A DNA stretch of 64,000 bases from Eledone cirrhosa (lineage: Eukaryota), in contig OZ024741.1 in NCBI GenBank assembly GCA_964016885.1, positions 279,868,001 to 279,932,000 of the forward strand, read 5' to 3'. How positions within the stretch are numbered: the first letter of the stretch is position 1; each line of letters opens with the position of its first letter. Positions 5,401-63,234 of this stretch are shown here, piece after piece. The position numbers were made by a program, and so were the translations under genes. The notes under the pieces are model-generated. The model saw only the letters and a program-made list of their open reading frames with translations. It had not been told where the DNA came from and searched no databases.

Positions 5401-6452
5401 CCCTAAGGAGTTACAGGACCATACACACAGTATACTAGTAAACAAATACAGTATGGTGATGGTGGACTATCAACAGTAACTAAAATACACAGCAGTACAA
5501 TTCTCTATACCACAAATAATGTTGAACAATCTAATATGTATAGTAACATTAAATGGAGACATAATTTCCTGAATTCAAATTAAAAAAATCTGAATACTTC
5601 ATTTTTTTTAAATTGAAAATTCAACAAAATGTGTAAATAAAATACTTATTTAGTTAAATGAAGAGGAATGAGAGCCATGGTCATTCCCTTTACAGCCCCT
5701 CTTAGATTTGGGGAGATCAATGTAGTTGACTAATTAAAACTTCTGTAGAGCAACAAATACAGTCAGAGCAGAGAATTCAGAGGGCTGCAGTTTTAGGAGA
5801 GGAATGATTGGCAAAAATGTTCAGTGTGGGATTTTAGAGGTGAAATACAAACAGCAGCAGTGACAGGCTCATTAAATTTTATTTTTAAATGTATTGAGTT
5901 TTTTTATAGGAACAGGTGACAAACTTATTTTATTTCAAAATACTCAAATATATTCCTAGGATAAAATTAGATACAATTAATAAAGAATTTAATGTTTAGT
6001 TAAACATACAGAAAAAGAGAGTTACATTGGGGAAGACTATAATGTTCTGAGAAGAAAAGGAAGGAAACGATTGTTAGGCAACGAAAGAAAGGGGGAAGGG
6101 GAGAGGGTGACAGACTCTACACCTAAGACAAGAGCTGTGTTTTATCTACGCCCTGTGGATAAAATGGAGGAAGTATACAATGAGGTAGCTGAGAGGAGTA
6201 AGAGAAGAAATAAAGATCAACAGAGATTGTGATGCCTAACATTTTTAAGAAACATTATGTATTGTTCAGGAGTATAGAAAATAATGTACAAGGCTATATA
6301 TATCCTTGTCTGCAAAAATATAATCTTGGTTATGATGGTGAAACCAAGTATTAACAGTCAGTTGACTGTGGCACGGATTATCAGAGCAAGATGGAATAAC
6401 AGCAACATTCTATATTCAGTAAATCCCGAAATAAAACAAAACAAAAACTTAC

Positions 6453-6573
6453 CTTCTCTCTCTTTATAAGTTGTGGATGAACAAATTTTCTGTACAAGAA
6501 ACTGGATCCCTTGGTAACAGGAGACAACAACCATAGTACAAATACTATTTTTATTTCATAATAAAATGGAAGC
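6453..6573 (-). CDS. REEP: Internal coding exon of a receptor expression-enhancing protein (REEP1-4 subfamily, TB2/DP1/HVA22 domain), equivalent to vertebrate exon 4
   Basis: Strong acceptor ttcattttatttcag| and donor aag|gtaagt; 121 bp, entering in phase 2 and leaving in phase 0. Translates to (W)[40 protein letters not shown], matching the conserved REEP1-4 segment [30 protein letters not shown]...EK. Absent from the ORF track because it is a short internal exon. Confidence 0.93.
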
Positions 6574-7444
6574 CTGAAATAAAATGAAATAAGATAAGAA
6601 AAAAATCTCTCAAGGTGGTAATTCAGATCAGATAAAAGAAATTCATAAATGCTTTCAAAGTATAGAATTGACTACAGCATCTGAAATTTTGTTCATAGCA
6701 AAAGGATGAAGTAGATGGAAAAAAAAACTGTGTAAAGATAACTAGGTGTAAATATTATTTAATACATTTTTCTGCTTCTTATAAATCAGACATTATCAAG
6801 TAAATGTGATTTATATAGTACATAACAAAACTATGAAAAACATAAAACATGATTGATATGGGTTGATTAAAATACTTAAGTATATTTTGATATCAATGGT
6901 CAGTACATGTAAATTAACATTTGATGTTTAAGTATGTGTGTTTTAACTTCATATATCATAATACATCCAGCAGTTTGGCAATATTCTGATCTTGGTATTT
7001 ATTACTTTGCTTTACATGGCTTCTTTTAGCTTGCTTGTATCCAATTACTAAGTATTTTGTTTAGATAATCTATTTAAAAAATACCATGCCTGATGTTGCT
7101 TATGAGCTTTACCAAAATTATAGTGTATTACACCATTTGAAATTCAACATTATAATTTAAGCGCTCCTACATCTTAATAACGAAGGTTCATTGAACATTT
7201 AAGTTTAAAAATGCTGATTTTGATAATTTTCCACTTTTAATAATACCAGCCTGTAAAAGATTCTAAAAGGGTGTGCAGGATCAGAGTTCTATTAAAAAAG
7301 CTTAATTTATATTCAACCTAATTTTTACTGTAGATAATATTTCAAAAATATATAAATTACAATTTTATCATCCATTAAAATCTCCCACTTCCTCTGTATA
7401 TTTCAGATCATATTACATATCATACATTCTGAATTTTCTATGAC

Positions 7445-18775: not shown

Positions 18776-19113
18776 GGAGGCACATGGCTTAGTGGTTAGA
18801 GCATTGGGCTTGAAATCGAAAGGTTGTGAGTTCAATTCTCAAGCCGGGTGATGTGTTGTTTCCTTGAGCAAGACACTTTATTTCACATTGCTCCAGTTTA
18901 CTCAGCTGTAGAAATGAGATGATAGGGACTGGGGTCCCTATCATTCCACTGCAAAGTGGTCGTGGAGGTGCCACGGCAAAAAAGCACCCAGCACTCACTG
19001 TAAATGAGGTTGGTGTTAGGAAGAGCATGCAGCTGTAGAAATCAAGCCAGAATCAGTTCCCATCCCTCCCTTGCAATCAGAGAAAAGCGAACGTAAAATG
19101 ATGATGATGATGA
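18776..19113 (+). mobile_element. tRNA-derived SINE with RTE-type 3' tail
   Basis: A box tggcttagtgg, B box gagttcaattc, central domain ccttgagcaagacacttta...ctcagctg, RTE-like 3' part and (GAT)n tail; near-identical inverted copy at 27985-28375. Confidence 0.9.
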
Positions 19114-25672: not shown

Positions 25673-26254
25673 TCAGCTGATTGAAAGTTAGATTTATACT
25701 CTTCACAGCACTAACATGTTGTGAATTACTAATTGTAATATGTACCAATGTAAAATAGTTAAATTTAATTGTCAAACATATTCCAGCAAAACATTAGCCC
25801 TCTGCCCACTGTCTTTTTTTTTTCTCCTTTATTAAAGTTTTACCCCACACATCATCATCATTTTCATGTCTATTTTTCCATGCTTGGAAGTTCTCTCCAG
25901 TAGTCACTCTCATTGTCTCTTTCCTTATATTCATCTAAAAAAAAATGTATCAATAGTTTTTAACGTCAAATTAACTTATATTCCAAACACCAGCTTAATA
26001 ATGAGAAAGTTAGTTATAGAACTAAATCCTTTGAAATTTTTGATAATTTCAAAATCATAGGCAGTGTCTTTCATTAGAAATATTGTAATGAAAGACTTAA
26101 GGCTAAATAAATGTAAGCAATGCTGTTTTTTGTTTTGTAATTGCTACTACTATTACGTTACTATTGACAACAATATGTTCTTAAGTAAAATTAAAAAAAT
26201 TAAAAAATCTATGAAGTACTTAGCTTCTTGTGATTCCTTTTATTGCCAATAATT

Positions 26255-26530
26255 TCAGGCTTTGCTGCACTTTGGGCCAAGGAGGGTAAACTCTCCAAAT
26301 ATCAGTCGTTCTCCGACAGGTTTGCGGTTGAGCCCGAAGCAGTGGAGACTTCTGATATCCTTGGCCCTAGGACCACTTCCCTACTCACCACCATCAGCAC
26401 GGAGTTGGCTACCCACAAGTGTGAGCCTCGCGAGCTGGAATGGCTCTTACAGCACGTCTCCCTCACCATCCTCCGGGAAAACGCCTTCTCTATTCTGTCC
26501 ACCGGGATCGCTGGGCGACCAGCACATGGG
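26255..26530 (+). mobile_element. 3' fragment of a CRE-clade non-LTR retrotransposon (RLE region)
   Basis: Peptide KLSKYQSFSDRFAVEPEAVETSDILGP...EPRELEWLLQHVSLTILRENAFSIL matches the CRE C-terminal pattern; GC-rich island in AT-rich DNA. Confidence 0.75.
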
Positions 26531-27276
26531 GTCCCATTTGCTTATAATAGTGAGAGATGGAGAGTGTGAGAGAGATGGGGGCAGTGAGTGAAAGAGAGAG
26601 AACATTAATGCACACACACACTTGATAAGACAACAATAGAAACAAACAGTGAACAAATTATATACTGAATTATTTGAAATTAAATGTGATATTTGATTTC
26701 TTGACATCATCAAGCTAATATTAAAACATCAGAGAAAGCTGAAAACCAAAGAAATGCCAAATACTTTTTTGTAGAAATGTTTCTCAAAAAGGACATGCTT
26801 AAAATAACTGATAAATAATACACTGAAGTATTCTTTCAATAATACTAGATCAAAGCGTCCCAAACTGTGCTCTACAGCTAAGGTTCTCAACAGTGACAAG
26901 AACAACTTCAACAGAAATAACAACAAAAAGAAGCAATGGTGATGAAAGGTGTGGGTGTATTCATACATATGAACATACACATATGCATACAAACATACAT
27001 ACATATACATATACACAGACACATATATACACACACAGGCCTGCATTAGTGCTTGATGAGGTTGAGAACCTGGTCAGCTTTCTGTGGTATTTAATCTCCC
27101 TAGGTAATAAAATCTGGAAACAGAATTTTCTCCTTATCAAAAAAAACAAAAAAAAAACAAATATAAATGCTTGTATATATACAAATGTATAAATGCATAG
27201 CTATATACATACGACCTTTCAGACCTTTATTAGCTGGCAGGAGGTTGTATATTTTGTCGTTCCTGGGACGTTTAGC

Positions 27277-27381
27277 CCTAGGAAGGGAAAATGCTTCTCT
27301 GATGAGCTTTGGTTTTCCATCATAAATCCATCGGATTTATGAGGTTTTACAAAGCGAAACTGATCAGTAAGGGCCACTAGG
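27277..27381 (+). ncRNA. Type I hammerhead ribozyme, copy 1
   Basis: ttct-CTGATGA(27299-305)-gctttg...caaagc (stem II capped by a tcataaatcc/ggatttatga hairpin)-GAAA-ctgatcaG-TA-aggg. Palindromic stem III CUGAUCAG, GUA site (cleavage after 27369), distal stem I cctag/ctagg. Confidence 0.88.
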
Positions 27382-27771
27382 AGAGGTAAATATTTATAAT
27401 ATATTTTTTAATGTATTTTGAAAAATTGATTGAATTTTACTTGTTCTGCTTATCTTAATATTAAAGTTCTGGTGTATCAAATTAACACCATTGAACAACC
27501 TTGAATCATAGACAACCTATGTATTTCTAGGGGTACCTAGTATCCCTGGACAGATTAACTTCTACCTTTTTCTCCGTCCGTTGAGAACAATCCTGTTGCT
27601 CTACTTGGCTGCTATTTTTTTTTTATTTTTTAGTAGTAATTGTAGACAGCAAGTCTTTGATTTTCCTGCTTTTACTTCGGTCCAGTTTACATACGGGTCA
27701 CTTTTACGACCTTTCAGACCTTTATTAGCTGGCAGGAGGTTGTATATTTTGTCGTTCCTGGGACGTTTAGC

Positions 27772-27876
27772 CCTAGGAAGGGAAAATGCTTCTCTGATGA
27801 GCTTTGGTTTTCCATCATAAACCCATCGGATTTATGAGGTTTTACAAAGCGAAACTGATCAGTAAGGGCCACTAGG
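27772..27876 (+). ncRNA. Type I hammerhead ribozyme, copy 2
   Basis: Same as copy 1 apart from one substitution in the distal stem II hairpin; CTGATGA 27794-800, GAAA 27851-54, GUA 27862-64. Confidence 0.88.
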
Positions 27877-27949
27877 AGAGGTAAATATTTATATTATATT
27901 TTTTAATGTATTTTGAAAAATTGATTGAATTTTACTTGTTCTGCTTATC

Positions 27950-27984
<35 letters not shown>

Positions 27985-27988
<4 letters not shown>

Positions 27989-28375
27989 TCATCGTCACCG
28001 TTTTAAGTCTGTTCTTCTACGCTAGCATGGGTAAGACGGGTTGTCCTGTTGTGGGCAGTGTCCAGTCGGCTGACCTTGTCTTGCTCATACGGGAACTGAT
28101 TCTGGCTTGATTTCTACAGCTGGATGCCCTTCCTAACACCAGCCTCATTTACAGTGTGGGCTGGGTGCTTTTTTGCTGTGGCACCTCCACGACCACTTTG
28201 CAGTGGAATGATAGGGACCCCAGTCCTATCATCTCATTTCTACAGCTGAGTAAACTGGAGCAATGTGAAATAAAGTGTCTTGCTCAAGGAAACAACACAT
28301 CACCCGGTTTGAGAATTGAACTCACAACCTTTCGATTTCAAGCCCAATGCTCTAACCGCTAAGCCATGTGCCTTC
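27985..28375 (-). mobile_element. tRNA-derived SINE, full length, with RTE family B 3' end
   Basis: Reverse complement of the 18776 SINE; its 3' ~220 bp align with the RTE 3' UTR at 36216-36436. Confidence 0.9.
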
Positions 28376-28435: not shown

Positions 28436-31330
28436 TATCATCATCATCATCATCGTTTAACGTCCATCTTCCATGCTTCCATGGGTTTGGACGGGAGGTT
28501 TCCCACTTGAGGCAAGATTTGTTGTCCTGCTCGTATAGGACTGTCTGGCGGGTTTTCTACGGCTGGATGCCCTTCCTAACACCAACCACGTTTACAGTGT
28601 GGACTGGGAGGTTTTTACCGTGTTACCTACACGGCCACATTACAGCATGGACTGTGTGTTTTTTTGTCGTGACACCTACAAGACCTCATTTGTTTCTGAC
28701 TGGATGTTGTGGTACCAACATAACTGCACATTTAAGGGAGTGGTGTGGATGGGGTGGAGGTAGTGGGACGGGGCGGGGGGGGGGTATTTTGTTAGAGGTG
28801 CCTACTGACTGTAGGTTTCGCTTTGTACTTAGGCAAGGCGAGTCTTCTGTATGACTGTGTAGCGCCAAAGATCTCGGTCCAGTGACATTGTCTTGGAGAG
28901 GTGTAAGTGTGTGAGGTCGGAATTTATCAAGTCGTCCCAGGTTTTTCTGGGTCTGCCTACTCCGTGGCTACCGTCTATTTTTATCGCCCCGCACTTTTTT
29001 ATACAGCTGTCGTCTTTCATGCGCATCACGTGACCGTACCAACGTAGTCTTCTCTCAAGTAAACAACATCTGATCCCTCTTATTCCTAATTTCTCCCTTA
29101 GTTCGTTTATGCTTTGCCGTTCACGTATATTACTATTACACATCCAGCGGAGCATGCAAGCTTCGTTTCTCTCCAGTCTGCGTATATCCTCTGCACACAA
29201 TGCCCAGGTCTCACTGCCATGTAACATTGCTGTTCGTATGCAGGCATCATACAACCTGCCTTTCATTTTTAGAGAGAACCCTTTAGCGGCCAATAGTGGT
29301 ATAAGCTCTCTGAACTTTTTCCATCCCGTTCTGACTCTAGCTACTGTACTTTCAGAGCACCCTCCCCCACTGCTGATTTTGTCACCCAGGTAACGGAAGG
29401 TGTCTACTATTTCTATAGTACCATCTGTGCAATGGAATGAGCTAGTATTGTGGGCGCTTGCCGTTACTTATTGCACCAGAGCACCGGCCACATATAAAAT
29501 CTATATTCTTAGTTAGCTTACCTGTGATCCCACTACATCTTTTATGCACCCATACTTTGCATTTGGGATATAAAATGGAGTTTCTGCCTACTCCTTTCCT
29601 ACACACTGAGCATGGCCATTTCCCAGATGGGACCGGTGCCCTATTTTCCTTCCTACAAACTAGAACTTTAGTCTTAGACAAGTTAACTTTAAGGCCTTTT
29701 GATTCTAGGCCGTGCTTCCATGTTTCGAATTTCTTCTCTAGTTCAGCCATTGATTCAGCTATGAGCGTTAGATCATCTGAATATAGGAGTTCCCATGGGC
29801 AGCCGGTTTTGAACTCCTCTGTTATAGCCTGAAGGGCAATAATAAATAGTAGGGGGCTAAGAACGGAGCCCTGATGAACACCAACTTTTACGCTAAACTC
29901 TTCACTATATTCGTTGTTAATTCTAACCTTGCTGACTGTTTCTTTATACATGGCTTGTATAGCTTTCACAAGCCATTCATCAACAACTAGTTTTCTAAGA
30001 GCACACCAGATAATGGAACGGGGGACTCCAAGTCGACAAAAGCTAAGTATAGGGGTTTACTTTTAGCTAGGTACTTCTCCTGTAGTTGTCGTACAATGAA
30101 AAGAGCGTCTGTGGTACTTTTACCTGACACAAACCCAAACTGCATTTCATCTAGATCAATTCGTACTCTGATTAGTTGCGCTATTACTTTTTCTGTGACC
30201 TTCATGACCTGGTCGATTAATTTAATGACTCTATAGTTACCCCTATCAAGAGCATCTTTACCCTTGTAGCAGTTAATGATGATGCTGCTATGCCAGTCCT
30301 TCGGAACGGCCCCATTCTGTATGACTTGGTTTACTATCCGGGTGACCATAGTGTGTCCCACCGTTCCAAATGCTTTCAGCATTTCAGCAACTATTTCCGA
30401 AGGCCCGGCCGCCTTACCCGTCTTCATATCTTTGATTGCCTTACTTATTATACTACCTTCAACTCGCACTGCTGGTCCCTCTATTGGATCGATGTGGGGG
30501 AGACTGTCTTTCTCCCATTTATTCTCCTCATTTAGTAGCCTTTCGTAGTGACACTTCCAAGCTACCTTCTTATCAGCGTCAGTGATGGCAAGTACACCAT
30601 CATCATTAAGGACACACTTCTCCCCAATAATATCACGGTTTTCCTTGACACATTGCCTAGCAATCCTGAACACCTCACGTTTTTGGTCCTCGCGTTGTAG
30701 AACATGCTTGAACTTTCTTTCCTCTGCTTCCCTTCTTGCGAAGTACACTTGTCTCCTAGCTTCCCCCCTGGCCACTTGATAGTCTTCTCTACTTCCCCCA
30801 TCCCGCCATACTTTCCAAGCCTGCTTTTTGGCCTTAATTGACTCCTCCGCCTTACTATTCCACCACCACGTTACTCTCCTCCTGCCTCTAGGCCTGCTCC
30901 AGCCACAAACTTCATCTGCCTCCTTCAGCAGGTTAGCTTTCAGGAATTCTCACTGTTCCTCTATATTGTACGATCAATTGCTCTTCCTTACTGTCTAAAG
31001 CATCAAGTAATATGCTTTTAAATTTATTACTGGCTGTGGGGTCCTTTAGCTTCCATATTTTTCTCCTGAGGATAGTCCTCCTCTGTTGTCGAGTACGTCT
31101 TGTCCTGACTATGAGGTCGCTGACTATGAGTCTATGTTGGGAGGTGCATTCTTCATGGCGGAGGGATTTAGAGTTTACAACAGACACTCTATCACGTCTT
31201 CTGGTAAGGATATAATCTATCTGACTGGCGTGTTCCCCTGATCTATAGGTGATCAAGTGATTGTCTCATTTTTTGAAGTTAGTGCTACAGATAGTTAGGT
31301 TATTTGCATCGCAGAATTCCAGGATTGAGT
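28436..31330 (-). mobile_element. RTE-clade LINE (family A), truncated within the APE endonuclease, multiple disablements
   Basis: EN motifs TYRSG...SQIDYIL...TSQHRL; RT motifs [24 protein letters not shown]; 3' UTR and (GAT)n tail at 28436-28455. Confidence 0.95.
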
Positions 31331-31979
31331 TTGGTGGGTGGGGACGGTGGGGCGCGGGGAGGGGTGAGGGGGATGGGGTTGGGATTATGTTGGCCATCCG
31401 CGGCTGAAACAAAGAGGAGTCATTGTCTTTTCGTCCGGCAGCATGTGGTGAATTTGTCTTTATCTTTAGCATTATCACTGAGTGTCCAGATTGTTCAGAC
31501 TCTCCAGAATTTCATAGTCCATCCATCATATCGGCAAGCAACCAGAAGTGATAGCATAGTCCGCTGGCTTATGATTGGTCCTAATAATAATGGAGAGTGG
31601 GGGTGGGTAGGAGGGGTATGGGGTAGTTAGCGAGAGGGTTTAAATGAAATCTTCGGATTTTGGGCATAATTGGAGAAGCATATAACAGTAATAATAAGCG
31701 AATAATGGGGTTTTAAAATACAAGAAGATTATTTAGAAACAACCAGACAGAATTATAGAATAGCATTGAGAGAGAGCAAAAGATACGGATATATGAATGA
31801 ATGGACCGATAGGCTGGAGAGAGATAAGAAAAATGGCATTTACATTATACTTCGCAGGGAACGATGGGGTCTGACCATTAATAAGCGTTGACAAATTCTG
31901 AGATTCGTACCTCGTAACAGGTTTATTTATTATATTAATTCAAAATATTAACAAAAATAGACATTCGTGTGATCAAATA

Positions 31980-32046
31980 TATTTTATTATACATATTTCA
32001 GAGGTACTGAGCTATCTTCAACAGTACGTCCTCATCAGATAAAATA
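31980..32046 (-). ncRNA. Minimal type I hammerhead ribozyme (Penelope-pLTR style)
   Basis: Minus strand: tattttat-CTGATGA-ggacgtactg...cagtacctct-GAAA-t(atgt)A-TA-ataaaata. 8-bp stem I, 9/10-bp stem II with G.U closure, 2-bp stem III, AUA site. Confidence 0.75.
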
Positions 32047-32130
32047 AGATGATGCATGACATACCCTGACTTAGTAGATGGTTAAGATTCACTCATTCTT
32101 TGATTTATTCATTGAACCTTGTTTAACCTT

Positions 32131-32177
<47 letters not shown>

Positions 32178-33114
32178 CTACATACATACATTTACGTATG
32201 TATATAGCTATGCATTTATACATTTGTATATATACATACATTTATATTTAAGTGTGTAAGAATATATATATATATGTGTGTGTGTGTATAATATATATAT
32301 ATTATACACACACATATTTTCTTTTTTCAGTCTGGTCTACCATGTTTGAGCCCCCTGTTGGAGATAGATAGATAGATAGACGTTTACCAAACACACACAC
32401 ATTTATTACTGTCTCTGTCCCCCCACCAACACTCTTTCTCTCTTCATTTATATATATATGGCGTTGTTATTTGGTGTTGTTGTAAAGAGCAGTGGCCTTT
32501 GACCTGGCAATAAAAACTGGAGACAAAATTCTTTCTGTACCAAAACCAAGGCACACACACAAGTTTGTGTGTGTGTGTGTGCACGTTTATGTGTGTGTGT
32601 ATCTATCTATGTATATATAAAAGGGATACAGATATTGCTTTCTCAGTCACCAAGTTTCTCAATTCATTCCTTGCTACTAAGTATTTTATTTTGCAATGTA
32701 CTATTTTCCCCCTGAGTTTGTGATTTCAGAGAAAGGTAAGAAATTCTTCATATTTTGCATTTTTTGTATTTTGACTTTACAGTTTCAATTGTCTATCCAC
32801 TCAAAATATTATAACAGCTAACAGTGAAATATAGAATTTAAAAATAAAAAGCTTTTTTGACTGAGATCAAATTTTTTTTAATTTTTATTTCAAAAATATA
32901 TAATTTGAAATAGCTTGCTTTTGTTTTGGACTTTTTTGTATTTAATTTGTATGAGTATTTTTTAAAGATTCTAAGATAACTTGATTTGGCCCAGTAATCT
33001 ACTGATATCAAAATCAGTAGTATATTGAAAAATGGAAAAATAGGGTAGGGGGCGTTTCGTGATTTCGAGGGGCGAAATGGGTTGAGAACCTTTGCTCTAC
33101 AGCATACCCTTAAA

Positions 33115-36213: not shown

Positions 36214-38278
36214 ATCATCATCATCACCGTTTTACGTCCGTTCTTCCATGCTAGCATGGGTTAAACGGGTTGTCCTGTTGTGGGCAGTGGCTGGTCGGCT
36301 GACCATGCCTTGCTCATACAGGAACTGATTTTGGCTTGATTTCTACAGCTGGATGCCCTTCCTAACACCAACCTCATTAACAGTGAGCGCTGGGTGCTTT
36401 TTTCCGTAACGCCTACACGTCCACTTTGCAGTGGGAGGGTGTGGGGGCATATTGTCTATATGCTTCAGCTTGTACCCATGGGAGGTCGGGTACTCTGTAT
36501 TACTGCGTGATGCCAGAGGTCACGGTCGTGTGTCATCGCCTTTGAGAGGTCTAATTGGGTAAGGTCAGCTTTTATCACCTCATTCCAGGTCTTCTTGGAT
36601 CTCCCCACTCAGCGGTTTCCATTGACTTCTAGTGCTCTGCACCTTTTTATGCAGCTGTCATCCTTCATACGCATCACATGTCCATACCAACGCAACCGCC
36701 TCACCTGCACACAGCATTTGATTCCTCTTATGCTCAGTCTCTCTCTCAATTCATTTATGCTTTGCCGTTTGCGTATATTACTATTACACATCCATCGGAG
36801 CATGCAGTCTTTGTTTCTTTCTAATCTACGTAAGTCTTCCACCTTCAGCGCCCAGGTCTCACTACCATGTAACATTGCTTTTCGGATACACGCATCATAC
36901 AGTCTGCCTTTCATTATGAGGGAGAAGCCTTTTGCAGCTAGCAGTGGCAGTAGTTCCCTGAACTTCTTCCATCCCGTTCTTACCCTAGTTATTGTACTTT
37001 CTGAACACCCACCTCCGCTGCTAATTCGGTCACCTAGGTAACAGAAGCTGTCTACTGTTTCTACAGAGCCCTCCCAGAGATTGGTGGTGCTTGTTTCCTG
37101 TTGCTGTTTGCTGCTTGCTGTCCCAGAACAGCTGCTACATGTGAAGCCTACATTCTTAATTAAGCTTCCTGAGATCCCGCTACATCTCTTGTGTACCCAT
37201 TGTTTGCATTTGGGGCAGAGAATGGAGTTCCTACCTACACCTTTCCTACATACTGAGCAAGGCCATTTCCCTGAGGGGATCTGGGTTCTGTTTTCTCGTC
37301 TACTTACAAGGACCTTAGTCTTTGTCATGTTGACTTTGAGCCCCTTTCTTTCTAGTCCCTGCTTCCAAGTTTGGAATTTCTTCTCTAGTTCTACCATATA
37401 TTCAGATATAAGTGCGAGGTCATCAGCATACAGGAGTTCCCATGGGCATCCGGTCTTAAACTCCTCCGTTATTGCCTGCAGGAATATGATGAACAGGAGA
37501 GGGCTAAGAACAGAGCCCTGGTGAACACCAACCTGTACGCTAAATTCCTCGCTATACTCATTGCTAATCCTAACTTTGCTGACTGCTCCCCTATACATGG
37601 CTTGTACAGCTTTCACAAGCCATTCATTTACTCCTAGTTTTCTAAGAGCCCACCAGATTATAGCACGTGGAACTCTGTCAAAGGCTTTCTCGAGATCGAC
37701 GAATGCCAGGTAGAGTGGCTTACTTTTAGCTAGGTACTTTTCCTGTAACTGCCTCACAAGGAAGAGGGTATCAGTGGTGCCTCTTCCTGGCACAAACCCA
37801 AATCGCATCTCATCTAGTTTCACCCGGTCCCTAATCAACTGTGCTATAACTCTTTCTGTTACTTTCATGACCTGGTCCATCAGCTTTATACCTCTATAGT
37901 TTCCACTATCTAGTGCATCACCTTTACCTTTGTAGCAGTTGACAATGATGCTACTGCACCAATCCTTTGGTATGACACCTTCTATTATTACCTGGTTAAC
38001 AATACGTGTGGTTATGGTGTGACCTACTGACCCAGATGCCTTCAGCATCTCGGCAGCTATACCCGATGGACCTGTTGCTTTCCCCGTCTCATTATCTTTG
38101 ATTGCCTTATTTACTATGCTGCTGCTGACTTGCACTGATGGCCCCTCTATAAAGTCTATTTGGGGTAGGGTCTCTTCTTCCCATGCATTCTCCTCATTTA
38201 GTAATCTATCATAATGGCTCTTCCATGCATCTTTCTTCTCAGCACTTGTGAGGGCAAGCTCACCTTTATCATTCCGGA

Positions 38279-38280
<2 letters not shown>
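36214..38280 (-). mobile_element. 5'-truncated RTE-clade LINE (family B, distinct 3' UTR)
   Basis: Long RT frame ([39 protein letters not shown]) with a frameshift near 36610; (GAT)n tail. The listed ORF start is read-through from a microsatellite. Confidence 0.95.
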
Positions 38281-38314
<34 letters not shown>

Positions 38315-38390
38315 CGAAGGAAATGTGGTAAGGAACCAGGTGGACCATAATGCACCAAAGTACTCAATACTTAGGGTAGTAGAGTGGGTA

Positions 38391-38513
38391 ATAGGAACGA
38401 GTAGGACCCCGGCGGCTGAGCTCAAGCCATTTCGACGGCTAATTCTCGACTCAATTTTGTCCAGAATTACCCGTCGAAACGGCTTGAGCTCAGCCGTCGG
38501 TGTCCTAGTCGTT

Positions 38514-42399: not shown

Positions 42400-45300
42400 T
42401 GTGTTACTATCGAGAGGCTAACCTTTGAAATAAAGCTGGGCGTGAAAATCGGATTACCTTCTGAACACGCCCAGGCCTACCACCCCATGTACATCCAAAG
42501 CTACGTGCTGCAGCTTCCTTGAATCGGAACTCAGCACAACATGAAAGTTTTAGTCTGCCTGATGATGGGCAGATCTGGAGGTTTGTTAAGGCTGGTGAAA
42601 CGTGGAAGAGAGATACCAGCTGGTCTGAGTGTGCTCTACCCACAATAACTGGCAATGAAAAAACTGCAACAACTCTGGGAAACTAAACCAGAACAACCTG
42701 CCATCCTCTACACACCATCATAAACTGCAAGCAGGGTACAAATTGTTGTCCTTAAATGCTCGCAGTTTATGCAACAAGATACATCTGTTTAACTCCTACG
42801 TCGGAAGCATCGACCTTGACTTCATCACAGTCACGGAAACATGGGCACATTCCTTACTCTGTGATGGGGTTTTCAGCATTACTGGGTACAACCTTTTCCG
42901 CAAGGACCGCATTAATCGCCGTGGTGGTGGTGTGATGGTCTACGTTCGTTCAAACTTTTCGGTAATTCCTTGCATTGATTTGAACGAATCACAAGAAGAA
43001 GTTTTTTTTTGTGACATACGTATGACCATGTCAACACTTCTGCTTGGTGTTGTTTATCCCCCCCCCCCCCCCCAAAAAAAAAACTACCATCAGGACACAC
43101 AGCTTTGCGATATCCTCAGAGCTGCTGGCAGGAAAACAGCCACTTATGTGTTTATTGCAGGTGACTTCAATCATCCTGAGATCGATTGGGAAACCTTTCA
43201 TTGGCCACAAAGTGCAAACGATTTCCTTGAGCTAGTGCTGGATTCAAACTGGTCACAAGTAGTCACCTCTCCAACAAGAGGTGACAACACTTTGGACCTG
43301 ATCTTCACCACTACTCCTGAAGTGATTATCAGTTGTACTACTGAGGAACCTCTAGGCGACTCTGATCATGCTATGATCATTGCCAATCTGGCTCTTGTGG
43401 GCAGCAACAAAAACCAGAACCATCTCCAATCTGCTTGCTTTGATTGGAAGAAAGCAGATTGGAACTTGTACTGCACTGAGCTACATCGCCCAAACTGGCA
43501 TAAGTTCTATAACTCTGGAGATGTGAACACTACACTCCAGAGCATCCTGGACTCAATATGGATAGCGTGTGCAGCATCGGTGCCACTTCAGCGGTCCAAC
43601 TTGCCAGGAAAGAACGTCGGAACACTGAACGGGAATATAAACTGCATAAATCAGATGCCAACAGAAAAAAAGCGGAATAAATCTTCCAACCATCTCAAGC
43701 AAGTGACAAAAAAGGCAGTGCTTGAATTTGAACAGTGCATAGCAACCAATCCTGACAGTTGGTCCTCTTCGCAATCTCCACACAAGCCAGATCACTGACG
43801 ATCCCAAAGGATGCGCAGAACTCATTGCTGAGTGCTTTACAAGCATTTTTACTGTTGAAAACCAGAATGTACCATCTCCACCATCTCTAACATCAAATTC
43901 CCTAACAACTATGGAATTTACACCTGCAATGTTGCGACGTCACCTTAAAAATAAGCACAACTATGCCTCCCTGGGTCTTGATGGTGTTACATACCTGCTT
44001 CTCAAACGTGGCGGGTACTTCCTTTTGCACCAGCTTTCTTTCTTCTTTCAATACTGTCTCAACAATGGTGCAGTGGAAAACGGCCAGTGTCATTCCCGTT
44101 CAAAAAGGGCGACCGCACGTCACCTGTCAACTATCGTCCAGTCAGTCTTACGAGCTGTATTGCCAAACTGATGGAATCCTGTGTCAGAGAAACATTTTAT
44201 AACTTCTGGAGCTCTCACAGCCTCATCCAGCCCTCGCTGTTTGGATTTATCCCTAACTCCAGCTGCTGTGATCAGCTTATCGAGTTCCTTGAAGACATTA
44301 CCCGGATCACTGACAGCGCCTCATGGATGTTGTTTACCTTGACTTCGCTAAGGCTTTTAATTCTGTGCCACACAAAAGACTTATGGCAAAACTCTCTGCA
44401 ATGGGTGTGAGGAATGATCTTTTTAACTGGTTGAAATCCTTCATTCTCAGCCGAAAAGAGGTAGTCACGGTTCTAGGACAGCATTCTTCACCATATGAGC
44501 TGTCATCTGGTGTACCACAGGGATCTGTTCTTGGTCCCCTTTTGTTTGTGGCATATATTAATGACATAGATGCCAACTTAAAGAATGCCACGGTACTGAA
44601 ATATGCAGTGACATCAAGCTGTACCTTGAAATCAAAAGGACTGATCCTGAAATCTACAACTCTTTCCTACAATCAGACCTGGACACAATGTAGCAATGGA
44701 TCACAGACTGGCAACTGAAGCTGGCTGTGGACAAGTGTACCACCATGCATTTTGGGAGGAAAAATCCAGCGTCCACATACTCCCTCCACAACACTGATAT
44801 CAAGAAGTCCTCTTGTGAACGTGACCTGGGCATTACTGTCAGCAGCGATTTGCGTTGGACAAAGCATGTCTCTAAGATTGTAAAGAAGGCCGAGGGTGTC
44901 TTGGCATCACTCAGCAAGACCTTTGTTAGCCGCTCTCCAGCCATCTATTTAAAACTGTATACAGCTATGGTACGACCACACTTGGAATTCGCATCATCAG
45001 TCTGGAACCCCTATCTTGCTCAGAACATTGACCTCCTGGAAACTGTTCAGAGACGTGCAACCAAGCGCATACCCTCCATCAGACACCTACCATACTCTGA
45101 ACGCCTTGCTTCCCTGGGCATGGATTCATTGAAGCTCCGACGTCTGGCAATGGACTTGATAAACACCCACAAAGTTATTAACCATCTCGCCAACAACAAC
45201 CCTGAGCACCTTCTTGATCTCCATGTGTCTAACACACGTGGACATGCCTACAAAATCAGAAAACAGCACAGCTCCCGTGACTTTCGGAAACATTTTTTCA

Positions 45301-45563
45301 CACTCAGAGTTGCTGAAGCATGGAACAAACTGCCTGCGTCAGTTGTTAGCTGCCGAGACACTGCATCCTTTAAAACCCTCATGCTTCTCGAAATTCGCCA
45401 AAACTACACCTGATGTACCCCTTCCATACACACGTGTATATCATGACTCATGCACTGTTCATTTTCCTGATGTTTGTACATTACCCTATGTACTATACAT
45501 ACACTTTTTGATGAGTTGTAGTGCACCTGAGCACTGTACACAATATTTCATTATTATTATTAT
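42400..45563 (+). mobile_element. CR1-group LINE, ORF2 (APE endonuclease + RT) frameshifted
   Basis: EN: LNARSL, VTETW, RKDR..RGGGV, GDFN, PTRGDNTLDL, SDH. RT: KKGDR...NYRPVSLTS, YLDFAKAFNSVPH, SGVPQGSVLGPLLF, RPHLEFASSVWNP. (ATT)n tail at ~45550. The 5' boundary is approximate. Confidence 0.92.
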
Positions 45564-46889
45564 GAATTATGCTGCAGATTTGATGAATTATAGAACCACA
45601 CTCAAAGCAATGTGCGACACTAGATATTGACTTCTGGCTGACCCAGGAGGGGTCACACCCGACTGTGAATGGATTACAACCTCCGGATTCAGTAATCTAT
45701 ACGAAAACCACGTGGCGGACATATAAGTAACTTAGTTGTCATTGACAGTTTTAGCCGTGAGTTTTCTATATATTCTACAGAAATTTGCACTCACTCTAAT
45801 AAACCTGTTTATTATTGTAACCATATCTGCTTTTCCTTCACTCTGCCATAGGTAATTCTGGAAGCGGAGTTTTCTATATACACTTTCTCTCTATGTGACG
45901 GGATAGCCATCACGATTTACATTTACTGTGGTATAATTGTATACGGTATGACACTTTGGTTCGACGCCGACTCGGCCATACAGTGAATTTCACTTGGGAC
46001 GTTGGGTTGAGTGACCGAACGTGAGGACTTTGGGGATGCCAGTTATTGCGGACTTGTCGTATTTTCAATTTCCTCACTGGTGTGCCAGCTGTACATGTAC
46101 CCTACCTTTCTTCAACTCATCATACTTTTTTTTATTTTAGATTTTAGGTGTCTATTGCAGATCGCCTATGTGGATAAATCCCCTGGGTATATGTTTTGGA
46201 AACAATGTTATCTCGCCTAACGCTCGGAACTGGAACCAATGGATGTGGTTCGTAGGGTGCTGATATGATACGGAGAATCGACCTGTTACAAGGCGATATA
46301 ACTGGAGTACACCATCCTTCCTATAGACAATCCTACATGTAAAGCTGCACCACCGCTAACCAACTATTCTTCTCACAGACTCATGCTTGCAAGCTCTCTT
46401 AATCTGCCTGTACACCCTGTATTTGGACTGCATGTGCTTTGATGTATCTATGCATTGCTTTGTTTTTTTTTGTTTTTTATTAAATATTATTATTATTATT
46501 ATTATTTTTTTTTTATCATGCTGATTAATACCTTCACTCATTCCTTGCTACCATCTCCCAACCTCCTTATCATCTATTGCACCATTTAAGTGTAAAATTT
46601 TTGATGACATTTTATGACATTATGTGCGTCATGTATTGTCTTTTTCTATATAGCGCTGGCCTCGGGACCCTCCTGCTGATCCTTTAACCTTGTTCTGGTG
46701 ACGCAGCTTGATGGAGCATGCAACTATTGATATACTCTTGTTTATAGGCTCATATGATTCCTGCAATAGGGTATGGATGAAACACTGTTAGCTAATAAAA
46801 CAATGTATTTCTAAGCACTCTTTGGTTATTCCTATAATTATACATATATACATATATATATATACATACAAATACATGCATACATACAA

Positions 46890-49907: not shown

Positions 49908-51716
49908 CATCATCATCATCATCATCATCAACGTTTAACGTCCGTGTTCCACGCTTGCATGGGTTTGGACGGGGGTAGTCCCACTTGAGGCAAGAGTGAT
50001 TGTCTTGCTCGCATAGGACTGTCTGGCAGGTTTTCTACAGTTGGATGCCCTTCCTAACACCAACCACATTTACAGTGTGGGTCTGGGAGGTTTTTACCGT
50101 GTTGCCTACACGGCCACATTACAGCGTGGACTGTGTGTTTTTTTGTCGTGACACCTACACGATCTCATTTGTTTCGGCCCGGATGGCGCGGCAGCAACAT
50201 AACTTTACATAGGACGGGGTGGTGTGGATGGGGTGGGGGTGGTGGTGGTGGGACGGGGTGTATTTTGTTAGAGATGCCTACTGGCAAGGCGGGTCTTCTC
50301 TGTTACTGAGTACCGCCAAAGGTCTCGGTCCAGTGACATTGTCTTGGAGAGGTGTAAGTGTGTGAGGTCGGAGTTTATCAGCTCGTCCCAGGTTTTTCTA
50401 GGTCTGCCTATTCCGTGGCTACCGTCTATCTTTATTGCCCTGCACTTTGTTATACAGCTATCGACTTTCATGCGCATCACGTGTCCATACCAACGTAGCC
50501 TTCTCTCGAGTAAACAACATCTGATCCCTCTTATCTCTAATTTTTTCCTTAGTTCGTTTATGCTTTGCCGTTCACGTATATTACTGTTACACATCCAGCG
50601 GAGCATGCAAGCTTCGTTCCTCTCTAGTCTGCGTATATCCTCTGCACACAATGCCCAGGTCTCACTGCCATGCAACATTGCTGTTCGTATGCAGGCATCG
50701 TACAACCTGCCTTTCATTTTTAGGGAGAACCCTTTAGCAGCTAATAGTGGTATAAGCTCTCTGAACTTTTTCCAACCAGTTCTGACTCTAGCTACAGTAC
50801 TTTCAGAGCACCCTCCCCCACTGCTGATTTTATCGCCCAGGTAACGGAAGCTGTCCACTATTTCTATAGAACCCTCTGCGCAATTGAAAGAGCTAGTATT
50901 TTGTGGGCACTTGCTGCTACTTATTGCACCAGAACACCGGCCACATGTAAAATCTATGTTCTTAGTTAGCTTACCTGTGATCCCACTACATCTTTTATGC
51001 ACCCATACTTTGCATTTAGGACACAAAATGGAGTTTCTACCTACGCCTTTCCTACACACCGAGCACGACCATTTCCCAGAAGGGACCGCCGCCTTGTTTT
51101 CTTTCCTACAAACTAGAACTTTGGTCTTAGCCAGGTTAATTTTAAGTCCTTTTGACTCTAGGCCGTGCTTCCATGTTTGGAATTTCTTCTCTAGCTCGGC
51201 CATTGATTCCGCTATGAGTGTCAGGTCGTCTGCGTATAGGAGTTCCCATGGGCAGCCTGTCTTGAACTCCTCTGTTATAGCCTGAAGGGCAATAATAAAT
51301 AGTAGGGGGCTGAGAACAGAGCCCTGATGGACGCCAACTTTTACGCTAAACTCTTCACTATATTCGTTGTTAATTCTAACCTTGCTGACTGTTTCTTTAT
51401 ACATGGCTTGTATAGCCCTCACAAGCCATTCGTCAACGCCTAGTTTTCTAAGAGCCCACCAGATAATGGAGCGGGGGACTCTGTCGAAGTCTTTCTCCAA
51501 GTCGACAAAAGCTAAGTAGAGGGGTTTACCTTTAGCTAGGTACTTCTCCTGTAGTTGTCGTACTATGAAAAGAGCGTCTGTGGTACTTTTGCCTGACACA
51601 AACCCGAACTGCATTTCATCTAGGTCAATTCTCTCTCTGATTAGTTGCGCTATTACTTTTTCTGTGACCTTCATGACCTGGTCGATTAATTTAATGCCTC
51701 TATAGTTACTCCTATC
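49908..51716 (-). mobile_element. 5'-truncated RTE LINE (family A) with an uninterrupted RT frame
   Basis: Open frame from NYRGIKL through YADD to the C-terminus (50268); (GAT)n tail. Confidence 0.95.

Positions 51717-54714
<2,998 letters not shown>

Positions 54715-54717
<3 letters not shown>

Positions 54718-59694: not shown

Positions 59695-63234
<3,540 letters not shown>

Follow-up and report, generated by a model that had tools for sequence, protein, structure and literature searches.

We sought to determine what kind of mobile element is represented by a pair of hammerhead-bearing direct repeats in Eledone cirrhosa, and by what route it was copied into place. The window analysed was a 64,000-nucleotide stretch of assembly GCA_964016885.1 (contig OZ024741.1, positions 279,868,001 to 279,932,000, forward strand), and positions below refer to it unless they are given as unit positions or carry a contig name. 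The original prediction had read the locus as a tandem hammerhead pair that would excise a 495-nt non-coding RNA, a candidate cephalopod retrozyme, with a remnant of a Penelope-like element (PLE) as the competing identity.

Structure of the insertion and its hammerheads

The two direct repeats lie 495 bp apart as had been claimed, each spanning 252 bp (27210-27461 and 27705-27956) and neither extending beyond these limits. They are also nearly identical, mismatching at 2 of 252 positions (27327 T/C and 27399 A/T), and the unit has no open reading frame worth the name: on the circular monomer, the longest ATG frames were 15 amino acids on the plus strand and 34 on the minus strand. Tandem hammerhead repeats therefore do exist at this site, but their architecture is that of a 5'-truncated tandem insertion of 1.52 units. 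A reading of the direct repeats as two LTRs was ruled out for the same reason, since the whole insertion consists of 1.52 turns of one non-coding unit. The unit length of 495 nt is correct for the window copy but specific to it; 64 of 89 full units in the family are 485 nt long, and the window unit is longer because its poly-T tract holds 10 extra bases. Besides this gain, the window copy differs from the family unit by approximately four private substitutions. The features of the insertion are as follows.

27210-27956, plus strand: whole insertion, 1.52 head-to-tail turns, non-coding, 5'-truncated, stopping at the main 3' site of the family
27210-27213, plus strand: 5' junction, where 4 nt (TACG) are microhomologous to the host repeat that the insertion breaks into (27159-27213)
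27295-27373, plus strand: hammerhead 1, with stem I at 27295-27298/27370-27373, core at 27299-27305 and predicted cut after 27369
27306-27355 and 27359-27368, plus strand: inner parts of hammerhead 1, namely stem II with an inner hairpin and the palindrome
27370-27864, plus strand: predicted cut-to-cut monomer, 495 nt (family norm 485)
27384-27391, plus strand: splice-donor-like AG/GTAAAT, 16 nt past the cut, a candidate by sequence only
27459-27461, plus strand: 3' end site 1 in the internal copy (unit 250-252), putative first reverse-transcription start
27462-27567, plus strand: PLE-type tail of ~105 nt, from end site 1 to end site 2 (unit 353-358, window 27562-27567)
27466-27499, plus strand: hairpin GTTCTG...ATHGAACMAC, just past end site 1, conserved in five families
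27615-27633, plus strand: poly-T tract, 10 nt longer in the window copy, terminating in TTTTAG
27790-27868, plus strand: hammerhead 2, with an intact core and a single mismatch in the inner hairpin of stem II; cut predicted after 27864
27953-27986, no strand assigned: (AT)17 target tract, immediately after the 3' end

The host repeat that the element interrupts on its left (27159-27213, plus strand) is short and AT-rich, and an inverted copy lies at 32195-32249 on the minus strand. It gave 321 exact 26-mer matches, and its copies often face each other across an (AT)n tract in which other insertions accumulate. The idea that this 55-nt inverted flank had been templated during insertion was dropped, since the flank is a member of the 321-copy repeat.

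Both hammerheads were found where they had been placed, with cores starting at 27299 and 27794 and cut sites predicted after 27369 and 27864. Each comprises CUGAUGA, a 6-bp GCUUUG/CAAAGC stem, GAAA, CUGAUCAG and GUA. The type I topology and motifs claimed for them stood, but the description as canonical did not: stem I has only 4 bp, two of them G-U pairs, stem II bears an additional 10-bp inner hairpin, and the hammerhead went unreported in an Rfam search with a threshold as loose as E<=5. The palindrome that forms stem III is 10 nt long. A hammerhead motif scan gave three matches in the window, while among 20 block shuffles used as a control 19 gave none and one gave two.

Folding predictions point to a ribozyme that is largely held inactive. 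A lone ribozyme was predicted to be blocked with a probability of 0.99. The palindromes paired with a probability of 0.92 in the modelled 27200-27960 RNA and only 0.48 in a 485-nt dimer, and the probability of stem I in the folded two-copy RNA was ~0. When the active double hammerhead was forced, it lay 9.4 kcal/mol above the minimum for the window copy and up to 14.5 kcal/mol above it at most. The model thus predicts that cleavage would be dimer-only and weak. The monomer as a whole folded better than 40 shuffles, with circular z values of -3.8 for the window unit and -7.2 for a 485-nt unit.

The palindrome of stem III differs across families, occurring as CUGAUCAG, CUGUACAG, CCGAUCGG and CUAAUUAG and as the near-palindromic CCGUCGG. 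With the window copy as the reference structure, both partners had changed in 23 of 51 pairs among 19 sequences from three families (three rows, L046, L196 and L221, exit the element within the tail), compared with 13.6 in shuffles and 5-8 when partners were slid. This covariation across families argues that the hammerhead is likely under selection.

Copies, ends and arrays across the genome

A 22-nt hammerhead core gave 616 exact matches genome-wide, and its reversed control gave none. A search of the same genome with the unit returned at least 175 matches in the best 39 of 1,598 candidates, many of them head-to-tail. We estimate 350-400 loci in total, of which ~90 were sampled. The family occurs as single pieces and as arrays of up to ~20 units, among them arrays of ~20, 15.5, 9.8 and 8.2 units. 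At least four sister families, likewise non-coding, have units of ~466, 524, 483 and 540-557 nt (loci L268-L297, L238-L267 and L141-L202). The layout of the ribozyme is common to all five families, as are a stem III that is fully or nearly palindromic, a GT motif 15-16 nt past the cut and, directly after end 1, a hairpin that is likely recognised by the reverse transcriptase (RT). Searches with variant-ribozyme and hairpin patterns brought up further families, all of them non-coding. The hairpin pattern had 2158 matches, mostly in the 483-nt sister family, including an 8-unit run at C1:82.117 Mb. A pair spaced by 5.2 kb in a sister family turned out to be a tandem duplication.

The ends of the copies were analysed at every locus contributing to the first 100 core matches on contig C1. 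These 61 loci comprise 77 arms, and the last array was read through its 5' part only. Because these loci were picked for carrying the core, the share of copies crossing the cut is biased in this set. The 3' ends were strongly clustered: among 76 that could be read, 52 fell at unit 251-254, another 18 at 353-364 and the remaining 6 at other positions, so that 70 of 76 lay at two fixed sites ~105 nt apart. At loci with two orientations, one arm ended at each site in 12 of 16 cases, and the other four included an irregular end. Ends at the fixed sites ran into (AT)n in 79 of 82 cases, counted over 71 loci that overlap with this set. The 5' ends, by comparison, were scattered, and 0 of 77 arms ended at the cut itself (unit 161+-3). 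There was a mild excess near the cut, with the 5' ends of 14 of 77 arms at unit 152-186; they could reflect either copying that ran off the end of cut linear RNA or microhomology with an AT-rich stretch. An apparent pile-up at unit 1-14 was set aside as an effect of how the loci had been selected; in the C1 set, 5 of 77 lay there. The tail of the anole PLE corresponds to two RT start sites (PMC11167929), and by analogy we infer that the two fixed 3' ends are two start sites for reverse transcription.

Units differed by 1.2 substitutions on average within an array, versus 7.5 between loci, and inverted arms carried the haplotype of their own array (L105 and L111). Among 54 locus-private variants, 5 were present in all overlapping copies, 7 in some and 42 in one copy only; an excess of A>G changes of the RNA-editing type was looked for among them and not seen. 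The 15.5-unit array (L101) showed, beyond array-wide changes, single-unit changes only. Three arrays (L104/L213 at C1:382.89-382.90 Mb, L103 and L102) had a partial, irregular higher-order periodicity of three to four units, which may mark an early step towards a satellite. An origin of this periodicity in multimeric circles was unsupported, as the L104 variant was confined to its array and the pattern was irregular. The single-copy variants and irregular higher-order patterns point to turnover of the arrays at the DNA level.

As to splicing, no spliced genomic copy was found for the single acceptor examined. The contigs of four runs of unspecified kind, which are silent on expression, held no joint skipping part of the unit. 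A motif present in run X4 had no match in the assembly.

The template for copying

The putative starts of copying lie 90 and 195 nt downstream of the cut. At most 195 nt could therefore be made from a cut linear monomer, which cannot have been the template, and so the core-bearing copies needed a template continuous across the cut, either a circle or an uncut precursor. We consider the circle to be probably the main route. Paired hammerheads would cut a multi-unit RNA, the released monomer would likely be closed into a circle by ligation, and a borrowed PLE reverse transcriptase/endonuclease would likely copy round this circle into (AT)n tracts. The near-uniform arrays, the haplotypes common to inverted arms, the private variants found in all copies and the lack of flank transduction lead us to prefer the circle. 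Against it weigh the unfavourable active fold, with stem I unformed in the model, the single-copy private variants (42 of 54) and the DNA-level turnover of arrays. Precedent on cutting also weighs against it; among frog dimers, one of nine was reported to cut and eight did not (Li et al. 2026, bioRxiv 10.64898/2026.07.22.740005).

The same observations allow a different template, an uncut or partly cut linear transcript of several units. The element would still be PLE-dependent and non-coding; the hammerhead would merely trim upstream read-through RNA or would work with the help of a protein, and the arrays would lengthen by DNA duplication. The energy of the active fold, 9.4-14.5 kcal/mol over the minimum, speaks for such a template, as do the irregular higher-order repeats, the mild 5' end excess at unit 152-186 and the modest arm length (median 538 nt, with more than two units in only 9 of 77 arms of the C1 set). 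The anole PLE, in the account of PMC11167929, also uses mainly uncut RNA, and its insertion was normal with ribozyme mutants. However, each round of linear copying would shorten the copies, no non-element 5' flank was shared among 90 loci, inverted insertions can have both arms multi-unit with a single haplotype, and L101 shows just the single-unit changes described above. We judge linear templating unlikely.

If the circular route is combined with the conserved features of the five families, a joint reading suggests itself. The genome would host an old clade, with five or more members, of circular-RNA parasites that all exploit a single PLE enzyme. A dimer-only switch would cut multimers and leave the circle locked, and a common hairpin would prime reverse transcription twice, once at each of two sites separated by ~105 nt; insertions would be rolling-circle records, and the starts may lie in a retained intron, given the donor-like GT past the cut in all five families. 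Start sites inside a retained intron, if such it is, would account for only unspliced RNA moving. Taken as a whole, this combination is tentative and somewhat doubtful. Were it true, each insertion would preserve in the genome a direct trace of a Penelope RT copying round a circle.

Relation to Penelope-like elements and to known retrozymes

The insertion marks closely match those of PLEs. Two fixed 3' ends bound a tail, the tail is present at one end only, 5' ends are truncated, arms are inverted, the target is AT-rich or (TA)n, and a hammerhead with palindromic stem III stands shortly upstream of the ends, as PMC4209133, PMC11167929 and PMC8557442 describe for PLEs, the last of these giving the two ends bounding a one-ended tail, the inverted 5' arms and the (TA)n bias. 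The tail is longer here, ~105 nt versus the 30-40 nt given for PLEs, and the family, unlike PLEs, has no RT or GIY-YIG frame. The element is very probably non-autonomous and mobilised by a PLE. The original claim that it is young, non-coding, multi-copy, of retrozyme type and mobilised in trans was supported; the window element is a young copy of a non-coding, multi-copy, ribozyme-bearing repeat.

It could be argued that the unit is instead the pseudo-LTR (pLTR) of an autonomous PLE and the copies its truncated remnants, since every insertion mark is a PLE mark. The original prediction had itself named this outcome, in which all genomic copies would be pLTRs of an autonomous PLE. When checked, the 91 loci sampled held no coding frame contiguous with the element, neither within the unit nor joined to it, and therefore the element is very probably no remnant of a pLTR. 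At 40 of 40 single-core loci, the last unit was preceded by more unit, (AT)n or unrelated flank. PLE-protein matches occurred nearby at 8 of the 91 loci, none as a contiguous upstream frame; three of these were read and had (AT)n in between, and by coordinates the other five were downstream or on the opposite strand. Five non-coding families of 460-560 nt with the same layout, two of which align over the whole unit, also argue against a pLTR. The sample of ~90 of an estimated 350-400 loci, and the 150 of 10,596 GIY-YIG candidates scored, leave this explanation some room, and we rate it as very improbable.

RT/GIY-YIG elements are abundant in the same genome. One of them, L121 (G000:C1:145869300-145878300, minus strand), is a near-intact pLTR-ORF-pLTR element with a broken frame. 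Its U3-A8 hammerheads lie 4979 bp apart, 63 nt separate its two ends and its target is (AT)n, so that the layout of hammerhead, two ends and (AT)n is that of the retrozyme family. The pLTRs of L121 and five other GIY-YIG/RT families had no sequence in common with the unit, and none of the 50 GIY-YIG loci read, out of the 150 candidates scored, held a PLE sharing the unit's sequence or hairpin motif. We infer that the mobilising partner is a microsatellite-targeting PLE of Neptune/Nematis type, a label based on the CX4CxxC motif that precedes GIY-YIG. For a PLE protein of this genome, the relatives that carry a name were bivalve proteins and bivalve-symbiont records. Three more PLE families carry TTGA-AA...AACCGGT variants after their frames. 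The window itself holds a third hammerhead of another type at 31985-32050 on the minus strand (core at 32038, 8-bp stem I), near (AT)n at 32134. Hammerheads resembling it occur in PLE loci L126, L129 and L134, and it is likely the truncated pLTR of another PLE family.

The least probable account, a dispersed minisatellite spread by DNA recombination with the hammerhead as a relic, has the DNA-level turnover of arrays on its side, but is largely ruled out by the end statistics: 3' ends are fixed, 5' truncation is random, arms can be inverted and the target is (AT)n. It is also opposed by the covariation of the ribozyme across families.

We compared the PLE-mobilised element with published classes. 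Metazoan non-LTR retrozymes, as described in PMC7229834 and Li et al. 2026, are non-coding AT-rich tandem units with one type I hammerhead each, dispersed as pieces and multimers, with palindromic stem III and PLEs in the genome; the present family agrees in each of these points, having at least two consecutive complete type I hammerheads in a tandem repeat, monomers, dimers and multimers in dispersed positions, and a predicted stable self-paired monomer fold. The unit falls within the 51-972 bp range of Li et al. 2026 and exceeds the 150-450 bp given by Cervera & de la Pena 2020 (PMC7229834). Its ribozyme is unlike theirs in its long stem II and 4-bp stem I and in being missed by Rfam. The present copies further document two fixed ends and a strict preference for (AT)n as target, and a homologous pLTR was not found among the PLEs read here, whereas 24 of 57 Xenopus families had TE homology (Li et al. 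2026).

Among PLE derivatives, the closest likeness is to the non-autonomous Chlamys elements such as MRC1, which PMC8557442 describes as non-coding, multicopy, head-to-tail PLE-type insertions; the 3' end of those elements is similar to that of their autonomous partner, and hammerheads are missing from most Chlamys in that account. The layout of a true autonomous PLE, with an RT + GIY-YIG frame flanked by the repeat, was absent from the loci sampled. Plant LTR retrozymes also have two hammerheads in direct repeats around a non-coding core (PMC7761336; Li et al. 2026), but these are type III ribozymes in true LTRs around a unique core, with PBS/PPT and 4-bp target duplications, whereas the hammerheads here are type I and the repeats a partial tandem. 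We assign the element to a new family of non-LTR retrozymes, a class already known, with unusually clear PLE footprints and with cutting and circles as predicted properties. The literature searched held no paper on a cephalopod retrozyme; Repbase and the supplements of PMC7229834 and of the bioRxiv paper, which may list cephalopod families, lay outside its scope.

Movement of animal retrozymes by PLEs via circular RNA has so far been proposed from co-occurrence and pLTR similarity. In the present family the PLE mechanism can be read from the insertion ends themselves, where each arm uses one of two putative start sites and runs into (AT)n. As the RNA is compact (485 nt), with its start sites mapped and its hairpin conserved, it offers a direct test of whether a PLE enzyme can copy round a circle.

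Several other features were recorded in the window. The (AT)n tract next to the insertion also took up a tRNA-derived SINE-like element at 27987-28370 on the minus strand (Rfam tRNA match at 28309-28366), whose 3' part matches the end of the adjacent LINE (73 nt, 86%); a further tRNA-like match lies at 18779-18846. Broken LINE copies at 28440-31650 (minus), 36500-38400 (minus) and 42659-45600 (plus), with RT, PHD-like finger and endonuclease domain, are what we take to be RTE-like. A frame at 26234-26566 (plus) gave no match in a Pfam search and, by its motif, presumably resembles the C-terminal endonuclease region of a non-LTR element. An exon with a TB2/DP1/HVA22 (REEP) domain lies at 6384-6671 on the minus strand, and degenerate (AT)n microsatellites of 3-3.5 kb occupy 51713-54715 and 59696-63232.
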